11,530 bases of DNA, taken from contig JBIIGV010000091.1 in the NCBI GenBank assembly GCA_044236265.1, forward strand, positions 1 through 11,530. Reading direction: 5' to 3'. Source of the DNA: Oligoflexales bacterium. GTDB taxonomy: Bacteria; Bdellovibrionota_B; Oligoflexia; Oligoflexales; RGVZ01. The first letter of the stretch is position 1, and each line of letters begins with the position of its first letter. The notes beneath the pieces were generated by a model, which had not been told where the DNA came from, did not search any database, and worked only from the letters and a program-made list of their open reading frames with translations. Below are positions 1 through 11,343 of this stretch, in pieces. The translations under genes and the position numbers were made by a program.

Positions 1-1256
1 TCACCGTCAAAGAATGTAATGCTAGAGGCAGTATAGGTTGGTGCTGTGTTGCCACTTCCGCCGCCAGTTCCGCTGCCTGAAGGTTCTCCCGTAGGAGAGT
101 CGTCAGATGGAGGGGGTGGGGAGCTAGGTGGTGGATCGGATGGTGCCGTCGGTGGAGTGTAATTGGAACTGTAACAAGCGGTACCCGCAAGTGCTGCGCT
201 AGATACGCAATCAGCGTAAACGGTGTCATATCGAGACTCAATCGTTGATTGTTGTTGGGCCGCGATGCTCGGACTTTCCGCCTGGCGATATAAAGTCGAC
301 TGAATTTGGTAGGCGGCGTACGTAGGTGCAAAGGAGGTGTCTGTTTCAGCCGCCTTTTTCAGGACATTGTTACCAATTTCATAGGGAGTTGAGGTCTCAA
401 TGCCGTGATTCACGCGGTAAGCTAAAACCGAAATGGGAATAGACTCGGCATAAGTACTGAACATTGATGAAGACTCAGCTTGTGCCACCTGTTCCACAAC
501 GACCGATGGCGATTTGCCTTGAGCAACCAGTGTGCTCAAAGCTTTGTTCGACTCTTGAGTCATTTGACGGGTTAGGCTGGTTAGATTGATGGAATTAGCT
601 TTTATGTTTTCCTCTTTTTGTTTTTGTACGGTGAGGTAAACGCTACTTGCCACTTGCATAAGATCGGCGATGCGGAATGCTGAGACGGCAAAAGCCTTCG
701 TTGAGTCTGCATCACCAGCGACGGCTTTCGCCGATGCAATCTCCATCATTTTTGCGGCTATGGAGGATGTTCCGTCGATAATCGTCTTGGCTGTCAGGTC
801 CTTGAAAATCGCGGGTAGCACCGTTGCGAATAGTTTGCCGTCAGAGCGCGAGAGTTTTAAAACTAAATAAGACCCTTTGGGCGCATTTACTTTGAGGCTA
901 AATTGATTTGTTGACGCGGTGGCGGAGCCTACAAGTGTTTGCGTTCCATTTTTTTCCAAAGCATATGCGTTAATAGTATAAGTCAATGTCGTTGCAAGGT
1001 TTACGCCGCCAATCTGCACGGACTCATCTGCTTGAGTAAAGTCAGTTGGATCGTCTTCTTTGACTGTACCGGTGACCTCGACGCTCTTGCTGGAAGCACC
1101 AGCTGAGGCAGAAGGTCCGGTGGCATTTTTGCGACAACCAAATTGAATTGATGTCATCAAAAGTACTAGTGCCCAAATGCTGGTCAGGCGTGATGACATT
1201 TGAGTTAATTTAATTCTCGGAAAGACTGATAAAGTCAAAACGATCTCCCTCTCCAT
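1..1256 (-). CDS. Putative secreted lipoprotein of unknown function, 3'-truncated by the window edge
   Basis: Manual translation shows an uninterrupted minus-strand frame from ATG 1256 (upstream in-frame TAA at 1280-1278) through base 3 with no stop (418 codons), so it is missing from the ORF track. Alternative starts are TTG 1238 (preceded by GAGAGGGAG, SD-like) and ATG 1199. From 1199 it reads MSSRLTSIWALVLLMTSIQFG-C-RKNATG, a hydrophobic signal with an imperfect lipobox (Cys 1136-1134). The visible end is C-x10-C followed by YTPPTAPSDPPPSSPPPPSDDSPTGEPSGSGTGGGSGNTAP. Confidence 0.85.
   Translation of the reverse strand, partial: MEREIVLTLSVFPRIKLTQMSSRLTSIWALVLLMTSIQFGCRKNATGPSASAGASSKSVEVTGTVKEDDPTDFTQADESVQIGGVNLATTLTYTINAYALEKNGTQTLVGSATASTNQFSLKVNAPKGSYLVLKLSRSDGKLFATVLPAIFKDLTAKTIIDGTSSIAAKMMEIASAKAVAGDADSTKAFAVSAFRIADLMQVASSVYLTVQKQKEENIKANSINLTSLTRQMTQESNKALSTLVAQGKSPSVVVEQVAQAESSSMFSTYAESIPISVLAYRVNHGIETSTPYEIGNNVLKKAAETDTSFAPTYAAYQIQSTLYRQAESPSIAAQQQSTIESRYDTVYADCVSSAALAGTACYSSNYTPPTAPSDPPPSSPPPPSDDSPTGEPSGSGTGGGSGNTAPTYTASSITFFDG
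39..161 (-). repeat. Low-complexity Pro-rich then Gly/Ser-rich interdomain linker
   Basis: Translates to YTPPTAPSDPPPSSPPPPSDDSPTGEPSGSGTGGGSGNTAP; seen as GGT/GGA-rich tracts on the + strand. Confidence 0.8.
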
Positions 1257-1472: not shown

Positions 1473-2663
1473 ATGACTAAAGAGCCGTTTTTTTGGACGT
1501 GGACGAAGCAGACTTCGGATGCAGCTTACGCATTAGCCTCAACAAATTCTTGCCGCCTACAAATACTAAATGAAAGCTCGGTTTTCGATGGTATGTCCAG
1601 CAACTTTCAAGCTGGCTTTGGTCACAGCTGTGCTCCCATCAAGAATGCAATCAAGCGTCAGCTTGACGAGTTCCCGGTCGCAAGCCCAAAGTTTTCATTT
1701 GATCTGAAGGCGCGAGTCAGTTGTGGCCTGATCAATTTGGTCAACTGTGGTGATGCGCGCATCTTTTATACCCTGTCTGGTGCTGAGTCTATTGAAAACG
1801 CATTGAAGATGGCTCGTCAAATTTCTGGCAAAACGATTATTTGTGCGCGCCGAAAGAGCTATCATGGTGCGACACTTGGCGCCATGTCAGTGACGGGAGA
1901 TTGGCGAGGGCAGGGACACTTTGGAGTGTCTGAATGCACAATGCGTATTCCTGAGCCGTCGGAAGATCCTGATTTAGCCAAGACTCGCACACTGATCCAG
2001 TCGGTGGGCCCTGAAAATATTGCGGCATTTTGCCTTGAGACAATATCAGGAATGAATGGAGTCATAATTCCCCCTAAAACCTGGTGGGAGGGCATATCAT
2101 CCATTTGCAAAGAGTTTGGAATTTTTTTGATCATTGATGAGGTCAGTTGCGGATTTGGGCGGACCGGTCCAGCATTTGCACTTCACCATTATAATATCGA
2201 TCCTGATTTTGTTTGTATGGCAAAAGCGATCACCGGAGGTTATGTCCCGTTTGGAGCTCTGTGGGTCAAGGAATCAGTGTCCCAATTTTATGATCACCAT
2301 GTTCTGAGTGCTGGCTTAACGGCTTATGCCCATCCGCTGGGACTTGCAGCAACGGAGGCTGTGCTTGAGATTTGGTGTGATCCTAAGTTTCAAGATAATA
2401 AGCGACTGCTTGAACAAGCGTTTGCAGAGGGTTCTAGTAATTTGAAAAAAAATCAAGCGGTGAAGGACGTGAGATCTATCGGATTGATTGCTGCCATAGA
2501 GCTCACAGATGGACTCACATTATCTTGGCAGCATTTTATTAAAGCAGGTGTTCATCTGGCGGTTAAAGAAAATACAATCGTAGTGGCGCCGCCCATGGTG
2601 ATGAGCCCCGACGAATGCGAAGAGATGTTTGCCTTAGTCGGTGAAGCAATCCAGAGACGATGA
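1473..2663 (+). CDS. Class-III PLP-dependent aminotransferase (omega/beta-amino acid transaminase, taurine/beta-alanine transaminase-like)
   Basis: Motifs SGAESIENALKMAR, SYHGAT, TGDWR, ETISG, IIDEVSCGFGRTG, PLP lysine in AKAITGGYVP (AAA 2223-2225) and GLTAYAHPL. The ORF track opens at TTG 1386, but ATG 1473 (MTKEPFFWTWTKQ, after GGCGGGA/GGG) fits the usual F-x-[ST]-W-x-x-Q N-terminus better. Confidence 0.9.
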   Translation: MTKEPFFWTWTKQTSDAAYALASTNSCRLQILNESSVFDGMSSNFQAGFGHSCAPIKNAIKRQLDEFPVASPKFSFDLKARVSCGLINLVNCGDARIFYTLSGAESIENALKMARQISGKTIICARRKSYHGATLGAMSVTGDWRGQGHFGVSECTMRIPEPSEDPDLAKTRTLIQSVGPENIAAFCLETISGMNGVIIPPKTWWEGISSICKEFGIFLIIDEVSCGFGRTGPAFALHHYNIDPDFVCMAKAITGGYVPFGALWVKESVSQFYDHHVLSAGLTAYAHPLGLAATEAVLEIWCDPKFQDNKRLLEQAFAEGSSNLKKNQAVKDVRSIGLIAAIELTDGLTLSWQHFIKAGVHLAVKENTIVVAPPMVMSPDECEEMFALVGEAIQRR

Positions 2664-3409
2664 GGAATTTTCCAATGGATCAGCCAACAAAAAAAAGCCG
2701 TAAGTTATTCGCTAATGCCAAAGATGCACTCTTTGATTTTAGGTCAGGTGTCACACTTATGAGCGGTGGATTTGGTCTCTGTGGTATTGCAGAAAACTCG
2801 ATCGCAGCGATTGCTGAGATGCCCGTTAAAGACTTGACGGTTATCTCTAACAATATTGGAAACTCTGGTCGCGGCCTGGTTGCGTTGCTGAGAGCTCGTC
2901 AAATAAGCAAAGCCTACTGTAGTTACGTAGGCGGAAACCCAGATCTTGAACAGCAGATGATGGCTAGTGAAATCGAAGTGGAGCTGGTGCCGCAAGGTAC
3001 GCTTTGTGAGCGGATTCGTGCAGCTGGGCTCGGAATTCGTGGGTTTTACACGCCAACTGGCTATGGGACCCCCATCGCTGAGGGCAAGGAAACCAGAGTC
3101 TTTGACAAACCATGCGTTTTGGAACTCCCTCTCCATGCCGACTTTGCCATCATCAAAGCGCAACGGGGGGATACATACGGAAATCTTTGGTTTAAGGAGT
3201 CAGCCCGTAACTTTTCACCACTAATGGCCATGGCTGCCAAGGTGACCATTGTTGAGGTCGAAGAGTTAGTGCCTATGGGAGAGATTGCTCCGGAGGATGT
3301 TCATCTACCCGGAGTGTTTGTGCAGCGGATTTTTCAAGGCTCAGGCTATCGCAACGATATCGAGATATTAAAATTAGATGCGAGATCTTCTGGGGAGGCT
3401 AGGTCATGA
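2660..3409 (+). CDS. scoA: 3-oxoacid CoA-transferase subunit A (family I, ScoA/PcaI/AtoD-like)
   Basis: GGFGLCG glycine motif, ISNN, SYVGGN, PQGTLCERIRAAGLG, YTPTGYGT, GNL, ARNFSPLMA, VHLPGVFV. ATGA overlap with the upstream stop (alternative start ATG 2675). Substrate not established; the symbol reflects family resemblance. Confidence 0.9.
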   Translation: MRNFPMDQPTKKSRKLFANAKDALFDFRSGVTLMSGGFGLCGIAENSIAAIAEMPVKDLTVISNNIGNSGRGLVALLRARQISKAYCSYVGGNPDLEQQMMASEIEVELVPQGTLCERIRAAGLGIRGFYTPTGYGTPIAEGKETRVFDKPCVLELPLHADFAIIKAQRGDTYGNLWFKESARNFSPLMAMAAKVTIVEVEELVPMGEIAPEDVHLPGVFVQRIFQGSGYRNDIEILKLDARSSGEARS

Positions 3410-4071
3410 GTCGCGGTGCGGATTACGGCAGGGGATGGACAAAAGAGGAGATGCTCCAGGAAGTGATTGCACTGTTCACAGATGGTTGCAGTGTTAATCT
3501 TGGAATCGGCCTTCCAACTGCAATTGCAGAGATGCTTCCTCAGGATCTAGATGTTTTTATTCAGTCCGAAAATGGAGTGTTAGGTGTGGCTGGTCGTCCG
3601 ACCAAAGACACGGTTTCGCCCACGCTTATTAACGCCGGTAAGGAAACTATCACTATTCGCCCCGGTGCCAGTTTTTTTGATAGCGGTTTAAGTTTTGGCA
3701 TGATCCGCGGCGGGCATATTGATTTTTGCGTGCTTGGCGGCATGGAAGTTGATAGCGAGGGTAGCCTGGCGAATTGGATCGTGCCCGGTCAGAAAATCAC
3801 TGGAATGGGTGGCGCTATGGATTTGGTGCATGGGGCCCGCCAAGTGATCGTTGTGATGACCCATTTCAACAAAGTGGGAGAGCCGAAGTTAAAGGAGATC
3901 TGCACGCTGCCTCTTACCGGGAAACATGTGGTGGATCTCGTTTTAACTGAGCTGGGTATTTTTGCTCCTAAGAATGGTCGATTTCATGTCCGAAAGTTAG
4001 CCCCCGGTGTTTCATTTGAAGATCTGAAGATTCCCATGAGTTTAATCAAGGCCAAAGAGGTTCTGGCGTGA
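3406..4071 (+). CDS. scoB: 3-oxoacid CoA-transferase subunit B (family I, ScoB/PcaJ/AtoA-like)
   Basis: VNLGIGLPT, catalytic Glu in QSENG (GAA 3568-3570), LINAGK, SFGMIRGGHID, LANW, GMGGAMDLV, CTLPLTG. ATGA overlap with subunit A and a GGAGG SD upstream. Confidence 0.92.
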   Translation: MSRGADYGRGWTKEEMLQEVIALFTDGCSVNLGIGLPTAIAEMLPQDLDVFIQSENGVLGVAGRPTKDTVSPTLINAGKETITIRPGASFFDSGLSFGMIRGGHIDFCVLGGMEVDSEGSLANWIVPGQKITGMGGAMDLVHGARQVIVVMTHFNKVGEPKLKEICTLPLTGKHVVDLVLTELGIFAPKNGRFHVRKLAPGVSFEDLKIPMSLIKAKEVLA

Positions 4072-5237
4072 CTAGCTTTAAAAATACGAATGATGGTCGA
4101 CCAGTGTTTTTTGCCGGACTTCGGACCCCGTTTACAACCGCTCACCGCGGCGGTTTCAAAGAAATCAGGCCTGATGATCTTTTAGTTACGCTTATGCGTG
4201 AGCATAGGGCACGATTCACATCAATTTATGACTCTGAGATTGACGACGTGATCGTTGGCTGCGCCTATCCTGAGGGAGAGCAGGGGTACAATGTTGCTCG
4301 GCAAGCAAGTCTTGGGGCAGGGCTATCAGCCTCCGGCGTGACGGTGAATCGTCTTTGTGGATCGTCGCTGGAGGCTTTATCCATTGCGTCAGCCCAAATT
4401 GCAGCAGGTCGAGGTGCGTGTTACCTAGTGGCCGGCATTGAATCCATGAGTCGCATACCACGGCGAGGTGCTAATTTTTCGGAGTCACTGGCGATTCGCG
4501 CGGCGTCTCCCGATGCCTACGTGACTATGGGTGAAACGGCCGAGAATGTTGCGAGGAAGTATCCTCACCTTAGTCGCGGGATACAGGAAGAGTTCTCTGC
4601 GCGGAGCCATGAGCTTGCGTACAAAGCATGGACATCGGGGTTTTATAATAACGATGTGATGGCAGTTCAAAATTTGAGGTTGGACGAGGCCGTTCGGTTT
4701 CCAGTTAATCTTGAAAAAATGGCAAATCTTCCTCCCGCATTTAACACGGCCGGTGTGGTCACAGCGGCCACAAGTTCGCCGATGAGTGATGGCGCTACTT
4801 GTGGTTTTGTAACGTCCATAAGTTTTGCCAAAGAGATTGGCGTCCAGGTCGCTTTGGAAGTCCTTGATATCCAGACGGCTCACGTGCCACCCGAAATCAT
4901 GGGTCTTGGTCCTGTCCCTGCTGTACAAAAGATTCTAAAGCGTCACGATTTGAAGACATCCGAAATCTCGGCGGTTGAAATGAATGAAGCATTCGCCATT
5001 CAGGTCATGGCATGCATGGATGAGTTGGACTTACGACCCGAGCAGATGAATGCATGGGGTGGAGCCTTGGCTTTGGGTCACCCATTGGGGGCTACAGGTA
5101 TACGACTGATGATGACTCTGCAGGCTAGAATGATGCATGCAGGTTTTACAAACGGCCTTGGCATAGCATCGTTGTGCGTGGGTGGTGGTCAAGGCATGGC
5201 AGTCCTCGGTCGACTAATTGATGTTTCAAAAGGATAA
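4068..5237 (+). CDS. fadA: Thiolase (acetyl-CoA C-acyltransferase), degradative FadA-type
   Basis: RTPF, RPDDL, GCAYPEGEQG, nucleophile Cys in NRLCGS, MGETAE, NEAFA, GHPLGATG, CVGGGQG. GTG start overlaps the upstream TGA (GTGA), with AAAGAGG SD. The symbol reflects subfamily resemblance only. Confidence 0.92.
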   Translation: MTSFKNTNDGRPVFFAGLRTPFTTAHRGGFKEIRPDDLLVTLMREHRARFTSIYDSEIDDVIVGCAYPEGEQGYNVARQASLGAGLSASGVTVNRLCGSSLEALSIASAQIAAGRGACYLVAGIESMSRIPRRGANFSESLAIRAASPDAYVTMGETAENVARKYPHLSRGIQEEFSARSHELAYKAWTSGFYNNDVMAVQNLRLDEAVRFPVNLEKMANLPPAFNTAGVVTAATSSPMSDGATCGFVTSISFAKEIGVQVALEVLDIQTAHVPPEIMGLGPVPAVQKILKRHDLKTSEISAVEMNEAFAIQVMACMDELDLRPEQMNAWGGALALGHPLGATGIRLMMTLQARMMHAGFTNGLGIASLCVGGGQGMAVLGRLIDVSKG

Positions 5238-5246
5238 GAGCTTCGA

Positions 5247-6809
5247 ATGACAAATTTTAAAATCACCTATTCAACATTCTCTAATGATGAGTCTCTCCAC
5301 CAGGCGTTTGACAAGGCCATCAAAGATCACTTGCATCAGTTTGGGAGGGCCTTTCCTGCGCGAGTTGGCTACGAGCGGATAGTGGAGGCTCACTCCTATT
5401 TGACGTCGATCAATCCCTCAGATACGCGGCAATCCCTGCATCGGTTTGAGGTGATGCCTTTGGACAAAATCGCTGATGTGGTGAGTCTTGCTAAAGGGGC
5501 TCAGAAATCATGGAGCAGCTTGCCATGGCAGTCACGAGTTGCGTGTCTCCGAAAAGCTGCCACGATCATTCGCGATCGGAAAATGGAGATTGCAGCCGCT
5601 GTATGTTTGGAGGTAGGGAAAAACCGCCTTGAGTCCTTGGGCGATGTTGAGGAGTCGGCCGATCTATTTGATTACTATGCAACACAAGTTGAGGAAAACT
5701 GTGGTTATGTAAAGCCATTGATGTCGTTGCTTCCCAACGAGACAACAGCTAGTCATATGCGTCCGTATGGGGTTTTTGCCGTGATTGCTCCGTTCAATTT
5801 TCCATTTGCATTAGCCGCAGGGATGTCGGGGGCTGCGCTACTTGCAGGAAATTCTGTTGTGTTAAAGCCTAGTGAGGAGACTCCTTGGACAGGGGAACTT
5901 CTATTTGAAGTTCTGCGCGATGCGGGTTTACCTGAGGGTGTTCTTCAGATTTGTCACGGGAAAGGGGACACTGTGGGTGCGACCTTGACAAGTCATCCTG
6001 ATATTGCAGGCGTGGCTTTTACTGGAAGTGCTGCAGTTGGAAGACTGCTGTTTCATAAAATGAGCTCTGGACCATTCGTCAAGCCCTGTCTCATGGAATT
6101 AGGTGGTAAGAACGGTTGTATCGTTACCGCAACAGCAGATTTGAAGGCTGCAGCGGCTGCCTGCGCTAAGTCAGCGTTTGGATTATCTGGTCAAAAATGC
6201 TCAGCTCTTTCACGAATTATTGTTCATAATGATGTCGCAGATGAATTTATAGACCTGCTAATTCAAGAGACTAAGGCATGGAAGGTTCTGCCAGCGAGGA
6301 GTCGCGACGCCTCCTTGGGCCCAGTTATTAATAAGTCCAGTGTGACGCGCTATCATGATGCATTGACTCTGGCGCGAGAGACGGCTGAGGTTTTATTTGT
6401 TAAACAACCTGAAGATTCAGCATCAACTTTGTATGGTCACTTTGTCGGACCGGTGATTGTAAAATGTCCATCAGATCACAATTTGATGAAAGAGGAACTC
6501 TTTCTTCCGTTCGTGTGTGTCACCGCCTATGGAGCGTTTGATGAAGCCATGGCGATCCTAAACAGCGTCGACTATGGACTCACTGCCGGTATTTTTTCGG
6601 GAGATGAAAACGAACATAAAATGTTCGTCGATGATGCTGAAGCCGGAGTTCTTTACGTGAATCGTAAGGCCGGTGCAACGACCGGAGCATGGCCAGGAGT
6701 ACAGGCTTTCTGTGGTTGGAAGGCAAGTGGAGCGTCTGGCAAAGGTGGCTGTGGTCCCTATTACGTATCGCAGTTCATGAGGGAGCAGTCGCGGTCGCTT
6801 TACAAGTAA
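5247..6809 (+). CDS. Aldehyde dehydrogenase, P5C-dehydrogenase (RocA/PruA)-like subfamily, probably NAD+-dependent
   Basis: APFNFP, LKPSEETP, FTGS, catalytic Glu in ELGGKN (6096-6098), catalytic Cys in GQKCSA (6198-6200), EELFLP, YGLTAG, TTGAWPGVQAFCGWKASG. GQKCSA and the TGA...Q.F.GWK.SG ending resemble the P5CDH group. Starts 9 bp after the thiolase stop. Confidence 0.88.
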   Translation: MTNFKITYSTFSNDESLHQAFDKAIKDHLHQFGRAFPARVGYERIVEAHSYLTSINPSDTRQSLHRFEVMPLDKIADVVSLAKGAQKSWSSLPWQSRVACLRKAATIIRDRKMEIAAAVCLEVGKNRLESLGDVEESADLFDYYATQVEENCGYVKPLMSLLPNETTASHMRPYGVFAVIAPFNFPFALAAGMSGAALLAGNSVVLKPSEETPWTGELLFEVLRDAGLPEGVLQICHGKGDTVGATLTSHPDIAGVAFTGSAAVGRLLFHKMSSGPFVKPCLMELGGKNGCIVTATADLKAAAAACAKSAFGLSGQKCSALSRIIVHNDVADEFIDLLIQETKAWKVLPARSRDASLGPVINKSSVTRYHDALTLARETAEVLFVKQPEDSASTLYGHFVGPVIVKCPSDHNLMKEELFLPFVCVTAYGAFDEAMAILNSVDYGLTAGIFSGDENEHKMFVDDAEAGVLYVNRKAGATTGAWPGVQAFCGWKASGASGKGGCGPYYVSQFMREQSRSLYK

Positions 6810-7185: not shown

Positions 7186-10100
7186 TTGTTGAAAAGATAT
7201 CCCCTGAAAATTTTACTGACTCTTGCGTTATTGAGCGCAGGTTGCGAGAGCAATATTGAAATTACGCAGGCTGGTGATGCAACGACTCTTGCAGCAAAGC
7301 GATTCGGCTTGGTGATTAAAACCCAGCCAATCGATCAGCCGTTCTCCGAATCAATAAAATTCTCCGTTGACGCAACGTCGGTAGACAATAGTTCATTGAA
7401 TTACCAGTGGCAGGTCAGTCATGACGATGGAAATTCCTTTACAGATGTGGAGGGTGCTAATGCGTCTGCTCTTGACATTGTCGGAGCAACAGTTGATGTG
7501 ATTGGCTTCCGCTACCGGGCTCAGCTTTGGTCTACTAAAGCTTCAATTAAGGTGCTGAGTTCATCGGCCGAAATTAAGGCAATATCGAATAGCGATGAAA
7601 TTAGTCTTAAGATCGCGACACATCCTCTGGCGCAGAAAGCTTCGGGTGGGGCCGCGGTTTTCCAAGCCACAGTCGAGACGAAGAATATCTCTGACGTTGC
7701 CTACCAATGGCAGGTGAGCATCGATGCGGGTGCAACGTTTAGCGACATTGTGGGAGCAACAGAAAGTACAATTAGTTTGTCGAATTTAACGAGCGCGGAG
7801 AGTGGGCGGTTATATCGCCTGAAGGCATCATCAGCAAAAAACAATTTGTCGGTCTTTAGTGACCCAGCTGCCCTGACATTGGATGAAGTGATTAATATCA
7901 TCCAGCAGCCTACTTCTCAGTCGACCAATACGTCTTCGGCATCATTCGCCGTCACCGCTTCTGCAACACCATCCGCAACACTTGCTTACCAGTGGCAGGT
8001 CAGCACCAATGGTGGCACGACATTCTCAGACATTGCAGGAGCGACAAGCAGTACGTTGACTCTTACAGGTCTGACGCCCGCAAATAGTGGCCAGGTCTAC
8101 AAAGTTAAAGTCCAGTTATCTTCTGGCAGCGGCACACCTGTTGATAGTAGCCATGCGACTTTGACGGTGACGCCACAAATCCAAATTACCACTCAGCCTC
8201 AAAATGTGACTTCGTCGGATGGTAATGCGACATTCTCAATAGTGTCCACTGCATCAGTCGGTACGTTGACATACCAATGGCAAAAAAGCACGGACGGCGG
8301 TAGCTCCTTTTCGGATATCCCTGGAAAAACCTCAGCAAGTCTTGCATTGACGGGGCTGACATCTGCAGAACATAACACGCGATATAGAGTTAATCTCGGT
8401 GTGACTGGATCAGCAGTGCAGTCCACTTCAAGTTCTGCGACATTATCAATGACTCCGACCGTTAGCATCACCCAGCAGCCTACCTCTCAAACCACCAATA
8501 CGTCTTCGGTATCATTCGCCGTCACCGCATCAGCGACATTATCAGCGGGTGTTATCTACCAATGGCAAGTTAGCTCTGATAGTGGTTCAACATTTACAGA
8601 TGTCGCAGGTGCCACAAGTAGCTCCTTAAGTCTGTCTGGTTTAACTCCGGCAAACAGCGGTCAAATCTATAAAGTCAGGGTCCAGGCTGCTTCTGGCGCA
8701 AGCACTCCAGTCTTCAGCGATAACGTCACGCTGACGGTCACGCCCTTGCTGGATATCACCAACCACCCAGAAAATAGCACATCATTAAATGGAAACGTGA
8801 CCTTTACAGTCATCGCCACCGCGTCAGTTGGAACTTTGACTTACCAATGGCAGAAAAGCACAGATGGCGGACTTAGCTTCGCCAACCTCGCTGGAAAGAC
8901 GTCGGCAAGTCTTTCATTGTCGAGCTTGACGGTTGCGGATCACGACGCAAGATTTCGAGTCAAGATTGGTGCCCTCAATGCTGTCGTGACCTTGGCCTCA
9001 TCCGCAGCAACTCTTCAGATTAAACCGGTAATCACGATTACTGAGCAGCCGGTTTCACAAACAATCACGAGTCTGAGCGCTAATTTCAGCGTAATAGCGA
9101 CTGTCAACCTAGGAGGTGTCGCATCCTATCAATGGCAAATCAGTCATGATAATGGGAGTACCTTCTCGAATATTTCTGGTGCGATAAGCTCTACACTAGC
9201 GCTTTCGAATTTGGCGCCGACGACCGTTGTTAAAAAATATCGGGTTAGGATCACCTCGAGTGGCATTGCGGATGCTGTTGATAGTGGTGAAGCATCCCTG
9301 ACGATCTCGTATACAGGTGCATTCAGTTCGGCGTTTTATATCAATAGTAATTTGGCATCTACATTGGATGTAAACGGATATGGAGACTATGGAACCTTTC
9401 ATTATTCAGCGTATCCAAGCTTATATGAAGGCCTCGACCCCAATAACGGACTGACCTATCAAAGTGGGATTGTGCTTCATGGCTTAGCAAATGGCTACTG
9501 CTACACAAATGGCGTTGCGGGAGATTCGCTGAATGATCCGTATTTAGGAATAACGGGCTATTGCAATAATCTTTACTACTATCAAGGGAATCTTGCGAAT
9601 GGTCTCATCGCAATTAGTACATCACTATTAATGAACATGGAATCAATGGCCGACAATTCGCCTAACCCGAAAACAATTAACCCAAGTGGCTCCGTGAGTA
9701 TCAGCACTCAGGAAGCGCTGTACGGCAGCTCTAGTTTAGACATTCCGTCAGGTTCCTATGATGGTCTAGCCATCGATTCAGGCGGTCATTTTGATTTTGG
9801 TAGCGGTAATTGGACGGTGGAGTTTTGGATAAAAGGTAAGGGAAATCCAGAATCCTGCGCCCGCATCTTTCAAACAGGTAATGGTGATGTGTTTACCGGT
9901 TTGGCAATTGGTAACCAGAACTGCGACAGCAATCTCAATCTTGGGATATCTTTGTGGGATGGGTCGAGCCCCAATTGGACGCAAACCAATTCAATTGGAT
10001 ATTATGACACGTCGAACTGGACTCATTTTGCAGTCGTGCGTTACGGTGATTCAATCATGGGGTTTGTCAACGGATACCTGAGCATGGCCGCAACTTTTAC

Positions 10101-11343
10101 CGGATCTTTAGCGCCTTCATCATGGCCCGCAGTCATTGGAGGGAACGTCAATTGGACTGGCCCTTCGCGCTCCATAAATGCTTATTTGGACGATATAAGG
10201 ATTGTTAAGGGAATAGCTCTCTATACGACTAGCTTCACTCCTCCTGCAAGTGCGCTAACTGCCGTTGGACTGGCATCTCCAAAATGCTTTAATCAAGGTG
10301 TCGACACGGGTTCTCTAGATGCTGCAGGAACCGGAATCTGCTCCGGCCAATACTACTACGCGGGTTCGCTCGCCAGTGGCATCGTCAATGGAGTTTTATA
10401 TGATTCATCGGGCTATCCATTCCAAGGTATCAATAACGCTGACGGAGATCGATATTATACGAACGGTGTCAGGGCCCATGGATACCTCTATGTTTACGCA
10501 CCTCCACAATCTTGGGGGATGGGCACTTACTTCATTGAAGGTCTAGCGACGAATTTGGACTACTCAGGCAATGGGCGCTGGTGCGAGAGTGTGACCACTG
10601 GCTACGAAGTTTGTAATAATTACGTCGAAGGTCAAGTTTTCAATGACGGTTGGTCAATTGTAAGGCAGACGTATTACTTATCCTCGTATTCGACAACATT
10701 GGGTAGCTCAGGAAACGGCTATTGGTGTGATTCTATGACTATGAATCCCGGTGGGTTGCCCTGTGGCTACTACTCTAATGGTTCATATGTAACTAATGGT
10801 TGGGTTGGTGATCCGTCCAACGTTTACCTTATTGACGGCCAAGTAGTGCCGTTAGATTCGAATGGTAACGGGTCTTGGTGCCCCGGGTGGACGTGGCTCA
10901 ACGGCAACTACCAGTACGTCTGTGGTTATTTTGAGGCAGGAGCGTATCTATCTAATGGTTGGTCTACATATGGAAACGTCTATGTTGTAAATGGATATTC
11001 ATCATCGCTCAACCAATACGGGGATGGTTACTGGTGCGACAGCATGTACGGTCAGTATTGCGGATACTACGCGAATGGTTCTCCATTCACCAACGGATGG
11101 ATTGCATCCATATCAAAATACATCATAGGAACCAGTGACACAGGTCTTGACTCTGGTGGAAACGGCACTTGGTGTGGGCCTGACCATCGCTACAGCTCGG
11201 GTATGGATTGGTCGTATCAGAATAGCCCTCTGGGCGGAACTTGCCATAGCTACATCATGGGCGACGTTGTGATGGGATGTACTGACACAGGCGCGACAAA
11301 TTACAATCCTCAGGCAACATACAGTGAAAATTGTCAGTATTGA
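7186..11343 (+). CDS. Large surface lipoprotein/adhesin: 7 Ig-like repeats, LamG/ConA-like domain, Trp-Cys repeats, GCTD motif
   Basis: 1385-aa ORF with TTG start (7186 or 7189) after GGGGTG. Lipoprotein signal LKRYPLKILLTLALLSAG-C (Cys 7243-7245). Domain motifs are listed in the sub-features. Confidence 0.9.
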   Translation: MLKRYPLKILLTLALLSAGCESNIEITQAGDATTLAAKRFGLVIKTQPIDQPFSESIKFSVDATSVDNSSLNYQWQVSHDDGNSFTDVEGANASALDIVGATVDVIGFRYRAQLWSTKASIKVLSSSAEIKAISNSDEISLKIATHPLAQKASGGAAVFQATVETKNISDVAYQWQVSIDAGATFSDIVGATESTISLSNLTSAESGRLYRLKASSAKNNLSVFSDPAALTLDEVINIIQQPTSQSTNTSSASFAVTASATPSATLAYQWQVSTNGGTTFSDIAGATSSTLTLTGLTPANSGQVYKVKVQLSSGSGTPVDSSHATLTVTPQIQITTQPQNVTSSDGNATFSIVSTASVGTLTYQWQKSTDGGSSFSDIPGKTSASLALTGLTSAEHNTRYRVNLGVTGSAVQSTSSSATLSMTPTVSITQQPTSQTTNTSSVSFAVTASATLSAGVIYQWQVSSDSGSTFTDVAGATSSSLSLSGLTPANSGQIYKVRVQAASGASTPVFSDNVTLTVTPLLDITNHPENSTSLNGNVTFTVIATASVGTLTYQWQKSTDGGLSFANLAGKTSASLSLSSLTVADHDARFRVKIGALNAVVTLASSAATLQIKPVITITEQPVSQTITSLSANFSVIATVNLGGVASYQWQISHDNGSTFSNISGAISSTLALSNLAPTTVVKKYRVRITSSGIADAVDSGEASLTISYTGAFSSAFYINSNLASTLDVNGYGDYGTFHYSAYPSLYEGLDPNNGLTYQSGIVLHGLANGYCYTNGVAGDSLNDPYLGITGYCNNLYYYQGNLANGLIAISTSLLMNMESMADNSPNPKTINPSGSVSISTQEALYGSSSLDIPSGSYDGLAIDSGGHFDFGSGNWTVEFWIKGKGNPESCARIFQTGNGDVFTGLAIGNQNCDSNLNLGISLWDGSSPNWTQTNSIGYYDTSNWTHFAVVRYGDSIMGFVNGYLSMAATFTGSLAPSSWPAVIGGNVNWTGPSRSINAYLDDIRIVKGIALYTTSFTPPASALTAVGLASPKCFNQGVDTGSLDAAGTGICSGQYYYAGSLASGIVNGVLYDSSGYPFQGINNADGDRYYTNGVRAHGYLYVYAPPQSWGMGTYFIEGLATNLDYSGNGRWCESVTTGYEVCNNYVEGQVFNDGWSIVRQTYYLSSYSTTLGSSGNGYWCDSMTMNPGGLPCGYYSNGSYVTNGWVGDPSNVYLIDGQVVPLDSNGNGSWCPGWTWLNGNYQYVCGYFEAGAYLSNGWSTYGNVYVVNGYSSSLNQYGDGYWCDSMYGQYCGYYANGSPFTNGWIASISKYIIGTSDTGLDSGGNGTWCGPDHRYSSGMDWSYQNSPLGGTCHSYIMGDVVMGCTDTGATNYNPQATYSENCQY
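7312..9309 (+). repeat. Seven tandem ~95-aa bacterial Ig-like repeats
   Basis: Consensus I..QP......F.V.A.....L.YQWQ.S.DGG..F.DI.GAT...L.L..LT......YR.......S..ATL. YQWQ begins at 7402, 7702, 7987, 8272, 8557, 8842 and 9127 (spacings 300, then 285 five times). Confidence 0.9.
9619..10245 (+). other. LamG-like / concanavalin A-like jelly-roll domain within the adhesin
   Basis: TSLLMN...DNS...YGSSSL...FDFGSGNWTVEFWIK...WTHFAVVR...FVNG...IGG...AYLDDIRIVKGIALYTTSFTPP. Confidence 0.8.
10528..11262 (+). repeat. Five Tyr/Gly/Asn-rich repeats Y.I.G..T.LD..GNG.WC-(loop)-C.YY..G....NGW
   Basis: WC at 10579, 10723, 10876, 11032 and 11170; partner Cys at 10612, 10762, 10921, 11059 and 11242. Confidence 0.85.

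Follow-up and report, generated by a model that had tools for sequence, protein, structure and literature searches.

The 11,530-nucleotide window analysed here, which is the whole of contig C168 of an Oligoflexales genome (GCA_044236265.1; 3.25 Mb in 234 contigs, 89% complete), carries five plus-strand genes encoding, in this order, a class-III aminotransferase (AT1), subunits A and B of a CoA-transferase, a thiolase, and an aldehyde dehydrogenase (ALDH) (Table 1). The core of this unit very probably serves to break down a beta-amino acid by way of the corresponding 3-oxoacid. With about even confidence, we propose that the operon serves the catabolism of beta-lysine via pyrroline-5-acetate, 3-aminoadipate, and 3-oxoadipate to succinyl-CoA and acetyl-CoA and that two transaminases take part. 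A little more tentatively, it may belong to an undescribed pathway from lysine over beta-lysine and 3-aminoadipate to 3-oxoadipate that would have been assembled from exchangeable parts on at least three occasions and would be common in predatory bacteria. Its parts would be a 1-pyrroline-5-carboxylate (P5C) dehydrogenase (P5CDH)-like ALDH and a second aminotransferase (AT2) in Oligoflexales-like genomes, a fusion of ALDH, aminotransferase, and GNAT plus a C45 hydrolase in Bacteriovoracia- and Myxococcota-like genomes, and a glutaconate-type CoA-transferase plus a YodT-like aminotransferase in Chloroflexota-like genomes.

Five-gene unit and its protein families

All five are genuine, intact genes. 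Their GC content, overall and at third codon positions, equals the genome values, and all catalytic motifs are preserved (AT1, D222 and K251; CoA-transferase B, SENG with E55; thiolase, C97, H338, and C370; ALDH, N184, E284, and C318), with roles that we take from established knowledge of the families. The first four genes are joined by 4-nucleotide stop/start overlaps (ATGA, ATGA, and GTGA), whereas the ALDH gene starts 9 nucleotides past the thiolase stop codon, close-packed and free of overlap; a sequence-only reading of the window had taken all five genes to be translationally coupled. The same reading was correct in that the unit lacks an acyl-CoA dehydrogenase and a hydratase, neither of which occurs in the window. 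The longest open frame of AT1 begins at 1386, and its homologues start at the ATG at 1473. A promoter and terminator scan gave counts equal to or below those of shuffled sequences.

The tree of AT1 was based on 19 genome and 80 metagenome loci, which yielded 96 AT1-like rows (340 amino acids or longer) in addition to the window and two outgroups. The window protein falls into a clade of 40 rows (SH-aLRT of 100 in a quick search with long branches flagged), some of which are duplicates of one genome. A CoA-transferase gene lies beside AT1 in 35 of the 39 other rows, and the remaining four are located on contigs that end just past AT1, which confirms the conserved synteny expected for the unit. 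Since the identical gene order recurs in other genomes, the arrangement is not due to chance.

All parts of the operon belong to known enzyme families, and curated NCBIfam cut-offs are passed by the two CoA-transferase subunits and, on a generic model, the thiolase only; AT1 and the ALDH fall below theirs. Both CoA-transferase subunits match CoA_trans of Pfam and, with their NCBIfam models passed and the catalytic Glu present, form a 3-oxoacid CoA-transferase (PcaIJ/ScoAB), two types that TIGR02429 and TIGR02428 do not tell apart. The enzyme is the sole copy in the genome, and a ScoA homologue is missing from all 12 other genomes of the genus. The thiolase is 54 to 61% identical to the thiolases of related clusters and at most 40% identical to the other thiolases of the genome; a thiolase gene is present in 12 of the 39 clade rows. 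Outside the AT1 clade, its PRK06062 sister group sits among dihydropyrimidinase and CN-hydrolase genes, i.e., those of a known pyrimidine degradation route to beta-alanine, and this context counts in favor of a beta-amino acid as the substrate. The logic of transamination to a 3-oxoacid, transfer to CoA, and thiolysis is supported.

AT1 is a class-III enzyme (PF00202, Aminotran_3; 221.7 bits against a gathering score of 30.5) with PRK06062 as its best NCBIfam model (248.8 bits, short of the cut-off of 472). The gene order had previously been compared with that of yodT-yodS-yodR, but orthology of AT1 with YodT is ruled out by its score of only 150.8 bits on PRK06917, which we take to be the YodT family (cut-off, 535; 25th match). 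The nearest PDB entry by both sequence and fold is 6JIX, a taurine:2-oxoglutarate aminotransferase (Toa), with a TM-score of 0.87 and an identity of 28%. R145 of AT1 aligns with R158 of the 6JIX chain, and W10, R145, D222, K251, and T283 are invariant across 18 aligned orthologues; for the Toa residues, no literature source was found. We propose AT1 as a candidate beta-transaminase that would convert 3-aminoadipate to 3-oxoadipate.

The nearest structures, Toa for AT1 and ScoA (3CDK/3RRL) for CoA-transferase A, would also fit the transamination of a sulfonate or short beta-amino acid (3-aminobutyrate, beta-alanine, or taurine) together with an ordinary acetoacetate CoA-transferase and thiolase, with the ALDH as an unrelated ornithine/proline gene; the automatic JGI names of AT1 homologues (taurine--2-oxoglutarate transaminase) and the presence of only this one CoA-transferase in the genome point in the same direction. 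Such a function is nevertheless very unlikely, because it does not explain why two unrelated modules of omega-aminotransferase and ALDH swap beside the core (see below), all 12 congeners manage without a ScoA homologue, a P5CDH is already encoded in the genome, and AT1 resembles 6JIX only distantly. Among the annotated neighbors, which cover cluster representatives only, no gene for the handling of sulfoacetaldehyde is named; one SDR gene follows the CoA-transferase in two distant loci.

The unit is flanked by two large unrelated proteins, which are included in Table 1.

Table 1. Features of the window
Feature	Coordinates	Strand	Characteristics
AT1, class-III pyridoxal phosphate (PLP) aminotransferase	1473..2663	+	396 amino acids; PF00202; unnamed clade next to PRK06062/taurine:2-oxoglutarate aminotransferase
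CoA-transferase A (ScoA/PcaI type, 3-oxoacid)	2660..3409	+	TIGR02429, 250 bits (cut-off, 128.5)
CoA-transferase B (3-oxoacid)	3406..4071	+	TIGR02428, 260.5 bits (cut-off, 243.55); SENG motif at residues 54-57
Thiolase, cluster-specific subfamily	4068..5237	+	TIGR01930, above cut-off
ALDH, distinct P5CDH-like subfamily	5247..6809	+	Aldedh; best NCBIfam model PRK03137, 395 bits (cut-off, 648)
Secreted-looking protein, likely a surface adhesin	7186..11343	+	1385 amino acids; about six immunoglobulin-like repeats (YQWQ motif), LamG domain, Gly/Tyr/Cys-rich repetitive tail
Lipoprotein-like open reading frame	3..1256	-	Incomplete at the contig end; without a match in Pfam or NCBIfam

Proposed route and its exchangeable upstream modules

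The ALDH does not reach the cut-offs of RocA-type P5C dehydrogenases (TIGR01237, 380 bits against 660; PRK03137, Table 1), and its nearest structures are PutA/P5CDH. K317-C318-S319, T479-G480-A481, and F488 align with the K-C-S motif, the T-G-A anchor loop, and the second Phe of these enzymes, whose roles in that family we presume to apply here. A 3-residue insertion ahead of the anchor loop is conserved in the subfamily; the AlphaFold model is unreliable at residues 473 to 505 and therefore allows no structural judgement of it. As the genome also encodes an equivalog P5CDH (TIGR01236; contig C73), the 1-piperideine-6-carboxylate (P6C) dehydrogenase Pcd, and a methylmalonate-semialdehyde dehydrogenase, P5C, P6C, and malonate semialdehyde do not require the ALDH of the operon. 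No equivalog of succinate-semialdehyde dehydrogenase (SSADH) is found among the other seven ALDHs of the genome. Among 130 genomes searched in the phylum, orthologues are confined to this one and the seven of a sister genus (g3), and all eight have the operon; a plasmid search returned a single ALDH match in an unrelated context. The role of a semialdehyde dehydrogenase suggested earlier agrees with these results, since the enzyme is of a kind that would be expected to act on a five-membered cyclic imine, and it is proposed to be a pyrroline-5-acetate (3-aminoadipate semialdehyde) dehydrogenase. Elsewhere in the genome (G000:C119:1178-3923; L374), a methylaspartate ammonia-lyase gene stands directly after a betaine-aldehyde-dehydrogenase-like ALDH gene.

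Among 39 relatives, AT1 orthologues (56 to 60%) were detected in six of the seven g3 genomes, where the operon of the seventh runs off a contig end, but in none of the 12 genomes of the same genus and none of the 20 others. Five g3 genomes carry a six-gene operon on one contig that is closed by AT2, and genes for a C39 and an M28 peptidase, used here as synteny markers only, are located divergently upstream of the operon in this genus. The AT2 gene of the present genome (73% to the g3 copy) lies on contig C54, at about 25305-26666, and adjoins the same two peptidase genes, which indicates that the five-gene block has moved away from AT2. Together with the ALDH and the CoA-transferase, AT2 tracks with the operon: no orthologue was found in the 11 other congeners tested, and only the twelfth, with a completeness of 66%, encodes AT2 but lacks the other operon genes. 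AT2 passes the cut-off of PRK05769, and its nearest structure is PH1423 (7VNO), for which L-ornithine and L-lysine are tabulated as donors and 5-aminovalerate and GABA (gamma-aminobutyrate) as weakly used (PMC9986279). From its sequence, AT2 is predicted to be an ornithine/lysine omega-aminotransferase, and the omega transamination is probably its task and not, as had been assumed, a second step of AT1. Adjoining the M28, C39, and AT2 genes is a gene for a 1577-amino-acid protein in which domains of the malate-synthase-like, OHCU decarboxylase, beta-lactamase-fold, and allantoicase types are fused (G000:C54, about 17800-22530; L040:2803-7533).

Beta-lysine is lysine with an amino group shifted by one carbon, and pyrroline-5-acetate is the one-carbon homologue of P5C. 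From genes, families, synteny, and distribution we infer the substrate of every step and the order of the steps. AT2 would take the terminal amine off beta-lysine, and the resulting 3-aminoadipate 6-semialdehyde would close to pyrroline-5-acetate, which the P5CDH-like ALDH would oxidize to 3-aminoadipate. AT1 would then transaminate the beta-amine to give 3-oxoadipate, the CoA-transferase would form 3-oxoadipyl-CoA, and the thiolase would release succinyl-CoA and acetyl-CoA; the addition of CoA may come before or after the AT1 step. In many relatives, the first two steps are probably exchanged for an N-acyl-protected version with a GNAT, a lysine-6-aminotransferase-like domain, an AstD-like ALDH, and a C45 hydrolase.

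Two modules are indeed found upstream of the core, i.e., AT2 with a P5CDH-like ALDH or an AstD-like ALDH with a lysine-6-aminotransferase/GNAT fusion and a C45 hydrolase. Within the 39 clade rows, a fusion of about 1020 amino acids and/or the C45 hydrolase is present in 23 and the P5CDH-like ALDH in 8, and no row has both. The rows of the P5CDH type are nested among those of the fusion type, and hence one module replaced the other; the GC-rich locus L129 has AT2 and a P5CDH-like ALDH about 5 kb downstream as well. The fusion (e.g., L052:5807-8869) begins with an intact lysine-6-aminotransferase-like domain, continues with a stretch that has an Atlas match to GNAT-bearing clusters (a lead only) and a motif, and ends in a degenerate second aminotransferase domain; this inactive domain may take the place of the partner subunit in the dimer. 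A longer fusion of 1550 to 1630 amino acids, with an ALDH at its start, is seen in GC-rich loci outside the clade (three tested; L109:2469-7115, L113:5059-9957, and L127:3897-8558). Its domains follow each other as AstD-like ALDH, lysine-6-aminotransferase-like domain, probable GNAT, and degenerate second aminotransferase. All four ALDHs tested from this module, i.e., those of the fusions and the separate one of L102, scored best on the AstD succinylglutamate-semialdehyde model, below its cut-off. By analogy with the two ornithine routes described below, each module would convert a diamino acid to an amino-diacid, one under N-acyl protection and the other without it, and the core would dispose of the beta-amino diacid. 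Immediately downstream of the fusion-type cluster, argB, argC, and an M20 hydrolase gene are found repeatedly in the GC-rich loci L111, L127, L129, L144, and L155; in the related loci L115 (5089-6422) and L140, the gene of CoA-transferase B lies on the opposite strand and is convergent with that of subunit A.

The variant with GNAT and C45 hydrolase contains every enzyme type required for a different fate of beta-lysine, which would also account for the link with the aminomutase gene kamA: acetylation at N6, conversion by AT1 to 3-oxo-6-acetamidohexanoate, CoA transfer and thiolysis to 4-acetamidobutyryl-CoA, hydrolytic release of GABA, and its degradation to succinate by a second aminotransferase and an ALDH. 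This N6-acetyl-beta-lysine route is improbable, however, as no match to the GNAT profile of the cluster was obtained in this 89% complete genome (a search confined to that one GNAT family) and the only C45 protein of the genome is distant and unlinked. Moreover, the ALDHs are P5CDH-like or AstD-like and not SSADH-like, for the fused aminotransferase the lysine 6-aminotransferase model gives a better score than the GABA-transaminase models, and a single chain with GNAT, omega-aminotransferase, and ALDH is a better fit to consecutive steps.

Lysine 2,3-aminomutase and the weighing of the evidence

Beta-lysine would be supplied by lysine 2,3-aminomutase (KamA) in most carriers of the operon and may come from an EpmB-like enzyme or the environment in the present genome. 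The link with kamA that the sequence-only reading put up for checking has no counterpart in or near the window, but it is found in relatives. In a Fibrobacteria metagenome-assembled genome (MAG; L053), a KamA-family gene is inserted between those of CoA-transferase A and B, and its product retains the residues D293, D330, and K337 of the lysine enzyme whose structure is known (2A5H); D293 and D330 presumably bind the epsilon-amine of lysine, a role for which no published source was found. Thirteen operon carriers lie outside the family of the window, and 12 of them have a KamA with these three residues (L053 type in 10, L053 included; canonical type in 2; none in 1).

In the Bacteriovoracia-like class (141 genomes), AT1 occurs in 71 genomes, the L053-type KamA in 69, and both in 67, with six discordant genomes (AT1 only in G191 and G219, G247, and G215; KamA only in G214 and G262), of which G219 carries a canonical KamA instead. 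A Fisher test of this co-occurrence (P of about 1e-32) was discarded as evidence because the genomes are related. A tree was based on rpoB, since Der/EngA could be scored in only 12 of the 141 genomes; it comprises 110 genomes (118 matched; 8 partial or redundant sequences were left out). On this tree, the genomes with the AT1/KamA pair make up a single clade, within which both genes are missing together at two nested positions (G207; G170 and G187), and the co-occurrence lends modest support to the aminomutase link.

The Chloroflexota-like set of 301 genomes contains the ALDH subfamily in at least 76 genomes (a lower bound, with four candidates scored in each), lysine 2,3-aminomutase above the cut-off in 53, and both in 46; a further 56 genomes have KamA matches below the cut-off and no ALDH. 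In 20 wide loci that were hand-picked from the 76 ALDH-positive genomes, a glutaconate-type CoA-transferase pair adjoins the ALDH in 10, all of them with the aminomutase, which is missing in 9 of the 10 loci without the pair. The pattern may reflect a single clade. AT2 is present in 8 and a YodT-like aminotransferase in 2 of the 20 loci. Two small genomes of this set (1.1 to 1.2 Mb; L428:3373-9368 and L430:3710-9717) have ALDH, AT2, CoA-transferase, and the YodT-like gene in one run and lysine 2,3-aminomutase elsewhere.

Several observations weigh against beta-lysine as the substrate. The sole KamA-like protein of the genome, and of its family, has His at the position of D293, so that no KamA of the D293/D330/K337 type is present in this genome; the His-type protein occurs beside maf in 10 of 12 operon-free congeners and does not track with the operon. 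The AT1/KamA co-occurrence stems mostly from one clade, with about three concordant versus about five discordant events, no KamA match was obtained in a Chloroflexi MAG that shares the exact order of the five genes, and 30 of the 76 ALDH-positive Chloroflexota-like genomes lack one as well. The thiolase remains far below the cut-off of the PcaF model (TIGR02430, 252.9 bits against 597), the CoA-transferase is closest to ScoA structures of the acetoacetate type, and a thiolase orthologue was detected in none of the 141 genomes of the Bacteriovoracia-like class, including the 71 with AT1, in a set that offers no positive control; the thiolase as a universal member of the cluster was rejected with the same reservation. 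Finally, Pfam did not detect a GNAT domain in the middle part of the fusion, and in the five Bacteriovoracia-like genomes tested AstD-like ALDHs are present with or without AT1, so that the tracking of this ALDH with AT1 was not seen.

The His-type KamA-like radical SAM protein (G000:C195:1346-2653; L041) has a shortened PLP-lysine loop and is present in 17 of 20 genomes of the family. An EpmA-like gene accompanies it in the genome, and the protein is therefore probably the counterpart of EpmB in the elongation factor P (EF-P) pathway. Its score is slightly better with the model of glutamate 2,3-aminomutase, which, together with the absence of D293 and the use of L-lysine by PH1423, would suit a different order of events, with AT2 and ALDH converting L-lysine to 2-aminoadipate and an aminomutase then providing 3-aminoadipate for AT1. 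We give little credence to this order, since D293 and D330 are retained in those KamA types whose occurrence follows that of the cluster, the His-type protein does not follow the operon, and a dedicated P6C dehydrogenase is encoded in the genome.

The KamA-free Chloroflexota-like genomes would fit a turnover of diamines or omega-amino acids, in which putrescine, cadaverine, ornithine, or 5-aminovalerate would be processed by AT2 and ALDH, AT1 would be a GABA/5-aminovalerate transaminase, and the CoA-transferase would activate a plain dicarboxylate (succinate or glutarate). PH1423 uses ornithine as well as, to a small extent, 5-aminovalerate and GABA, two KamA-free locus types carry an acyl-CoA dehydrogenase and electron transfer flavoprotein nearby, and a module for acetylation, oxidation, and deacetylation suits N-acetyl-diamines, too. 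Even so, such a turnover is unlikely: the 3-oxoacid type of the CoA-transferase and the thiolase and kamA genes within operons would be left unexplained, a second ALDH would be needed, none of the other seven ALDHs is an SSADH equivalog, and no acyl-CoA dehydrogenase occurs in any annotated locus of the AT1 clade. As for the beta-lysine route as originally suggested, synteny, the thiolysis logic, the type of the ALDH, and the aminomutase link (inside the operon of one relative and by co-occurrence in two other lineages) speak for it, whereas the omega step is probably the task of AT2 and not of AT1, AT1 is not a YodT orthologue, and no kamA gene lies in or near the window, the only KamA-like type of this family being found with or without the operon.

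Implications and comparison with known systems

If the proposed route is correct, beta-lysine 6-aminotransferase, pyrroline-5-acetate dehydrogenase, and 3-aminoadipate aminotransferase would be new activities, to which no gene is assigned in the searchable literature. The operon would represent a non-aromatic entry into the end of the beta-ketoadipate pathway and a short enzymatic path from lysine to 3-oxoadipate, explain lysine 2,3-aminomutase genes in organisms without fermentation genes, and lead to the reassignment of hundreds of proteins that are automatically named taurine transaminase or P5C dehydrogenase. Literature searches, in which pre-2000 and subscription papers are thinly covered so that absence from print is not shown, found nothing that pairs beta-lysine with 3-aminoadipate, no description of the route in beta-lysine catabolism as judged from titles and abstract openings, nothing on Halobacteriovorax with lysine and aminomutase, and only irrelevant papers for the N6-acetyl route and for 3-aminoadipate under its other names.

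The end of the beta-ketoadipate pathway (PcaIJ/CatIJ and PcaF) likewise employs a two-subunit 3-oxoacid CoA-transferase followed by a thiolase and yields the same products as those proposed here, but the annotated loci lack ring-cleavage genes, the operon thiolase stays under the PcaF cut-off, and the entry would be the transamination of 3-aminoadipate. In the catabolism of ornithine and arginine, RocD and RocA form an unprotected route via P5C, and the AST pathway (AstA/C/D/E) is N-succinyl protected. The two upstream modules, with their P5CDH-like and AstD-like ALDHs, mirror these alternatives; in contrast, their ALDHs fall below the family cut-offs, and the product would be passed to a beta-transaminase and a CoA-transferase instead of glutamate dehydrogenase. 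Toa (6JIX) shares with AT1 the fold and the arginine at R145/R158, but the identity is low, and the AT1 clade is separate, long-branched, and tied to CoA-transferases. The aerobic beta-lysine route of Pseudomonas B4 (Barker) reportedly proceeds via N6-acetyl-beta-lysine (EC 2.6.1.65), with the epsilon-amine being kept and leaving as GABA. It resembles the proposed route in beta-transamination, CoA activation, thiolysis, and acetyl protection of the amine, while the ALDH types of the operons and the lack of a detectable cluster-type GNAT point to prior oxidation of the epsilon end.

In Bacillus subtilis, we take the gene order to be yodT-yodS-yodR-yodQ-yodP-kamA. As in the present operon, a class-III aminotransferase gene directly precedes a CoA-transferase pair and a link with lysine 2,3-aminomutase exists, but AT1 is not orthologous to YodT, and the window lacks GNAT, deacetylase, and kamA genes; it is in two Chloroflexota-like loci that a YodT-like gene instead accompanies the same ALDH and AT2. 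YodT is described as uncharacterized and the role of KamA in B. subtilis as unknown (PMC6522883), and the proposed route offers a testable hypothesis for yodT-yodS-yodR. The beta-transaminase Kat of lysine fermentation, which acts on CoA esters (PMC3149608), is also a class-III enzyme that converts a beta-amino acid to a 3-oxo compound in a lysine pathway. Kat is HemL-like, whereas AT1 is not, and no KamDE, Kdd, or Kce occurs among the annotated neighbors of the operon.

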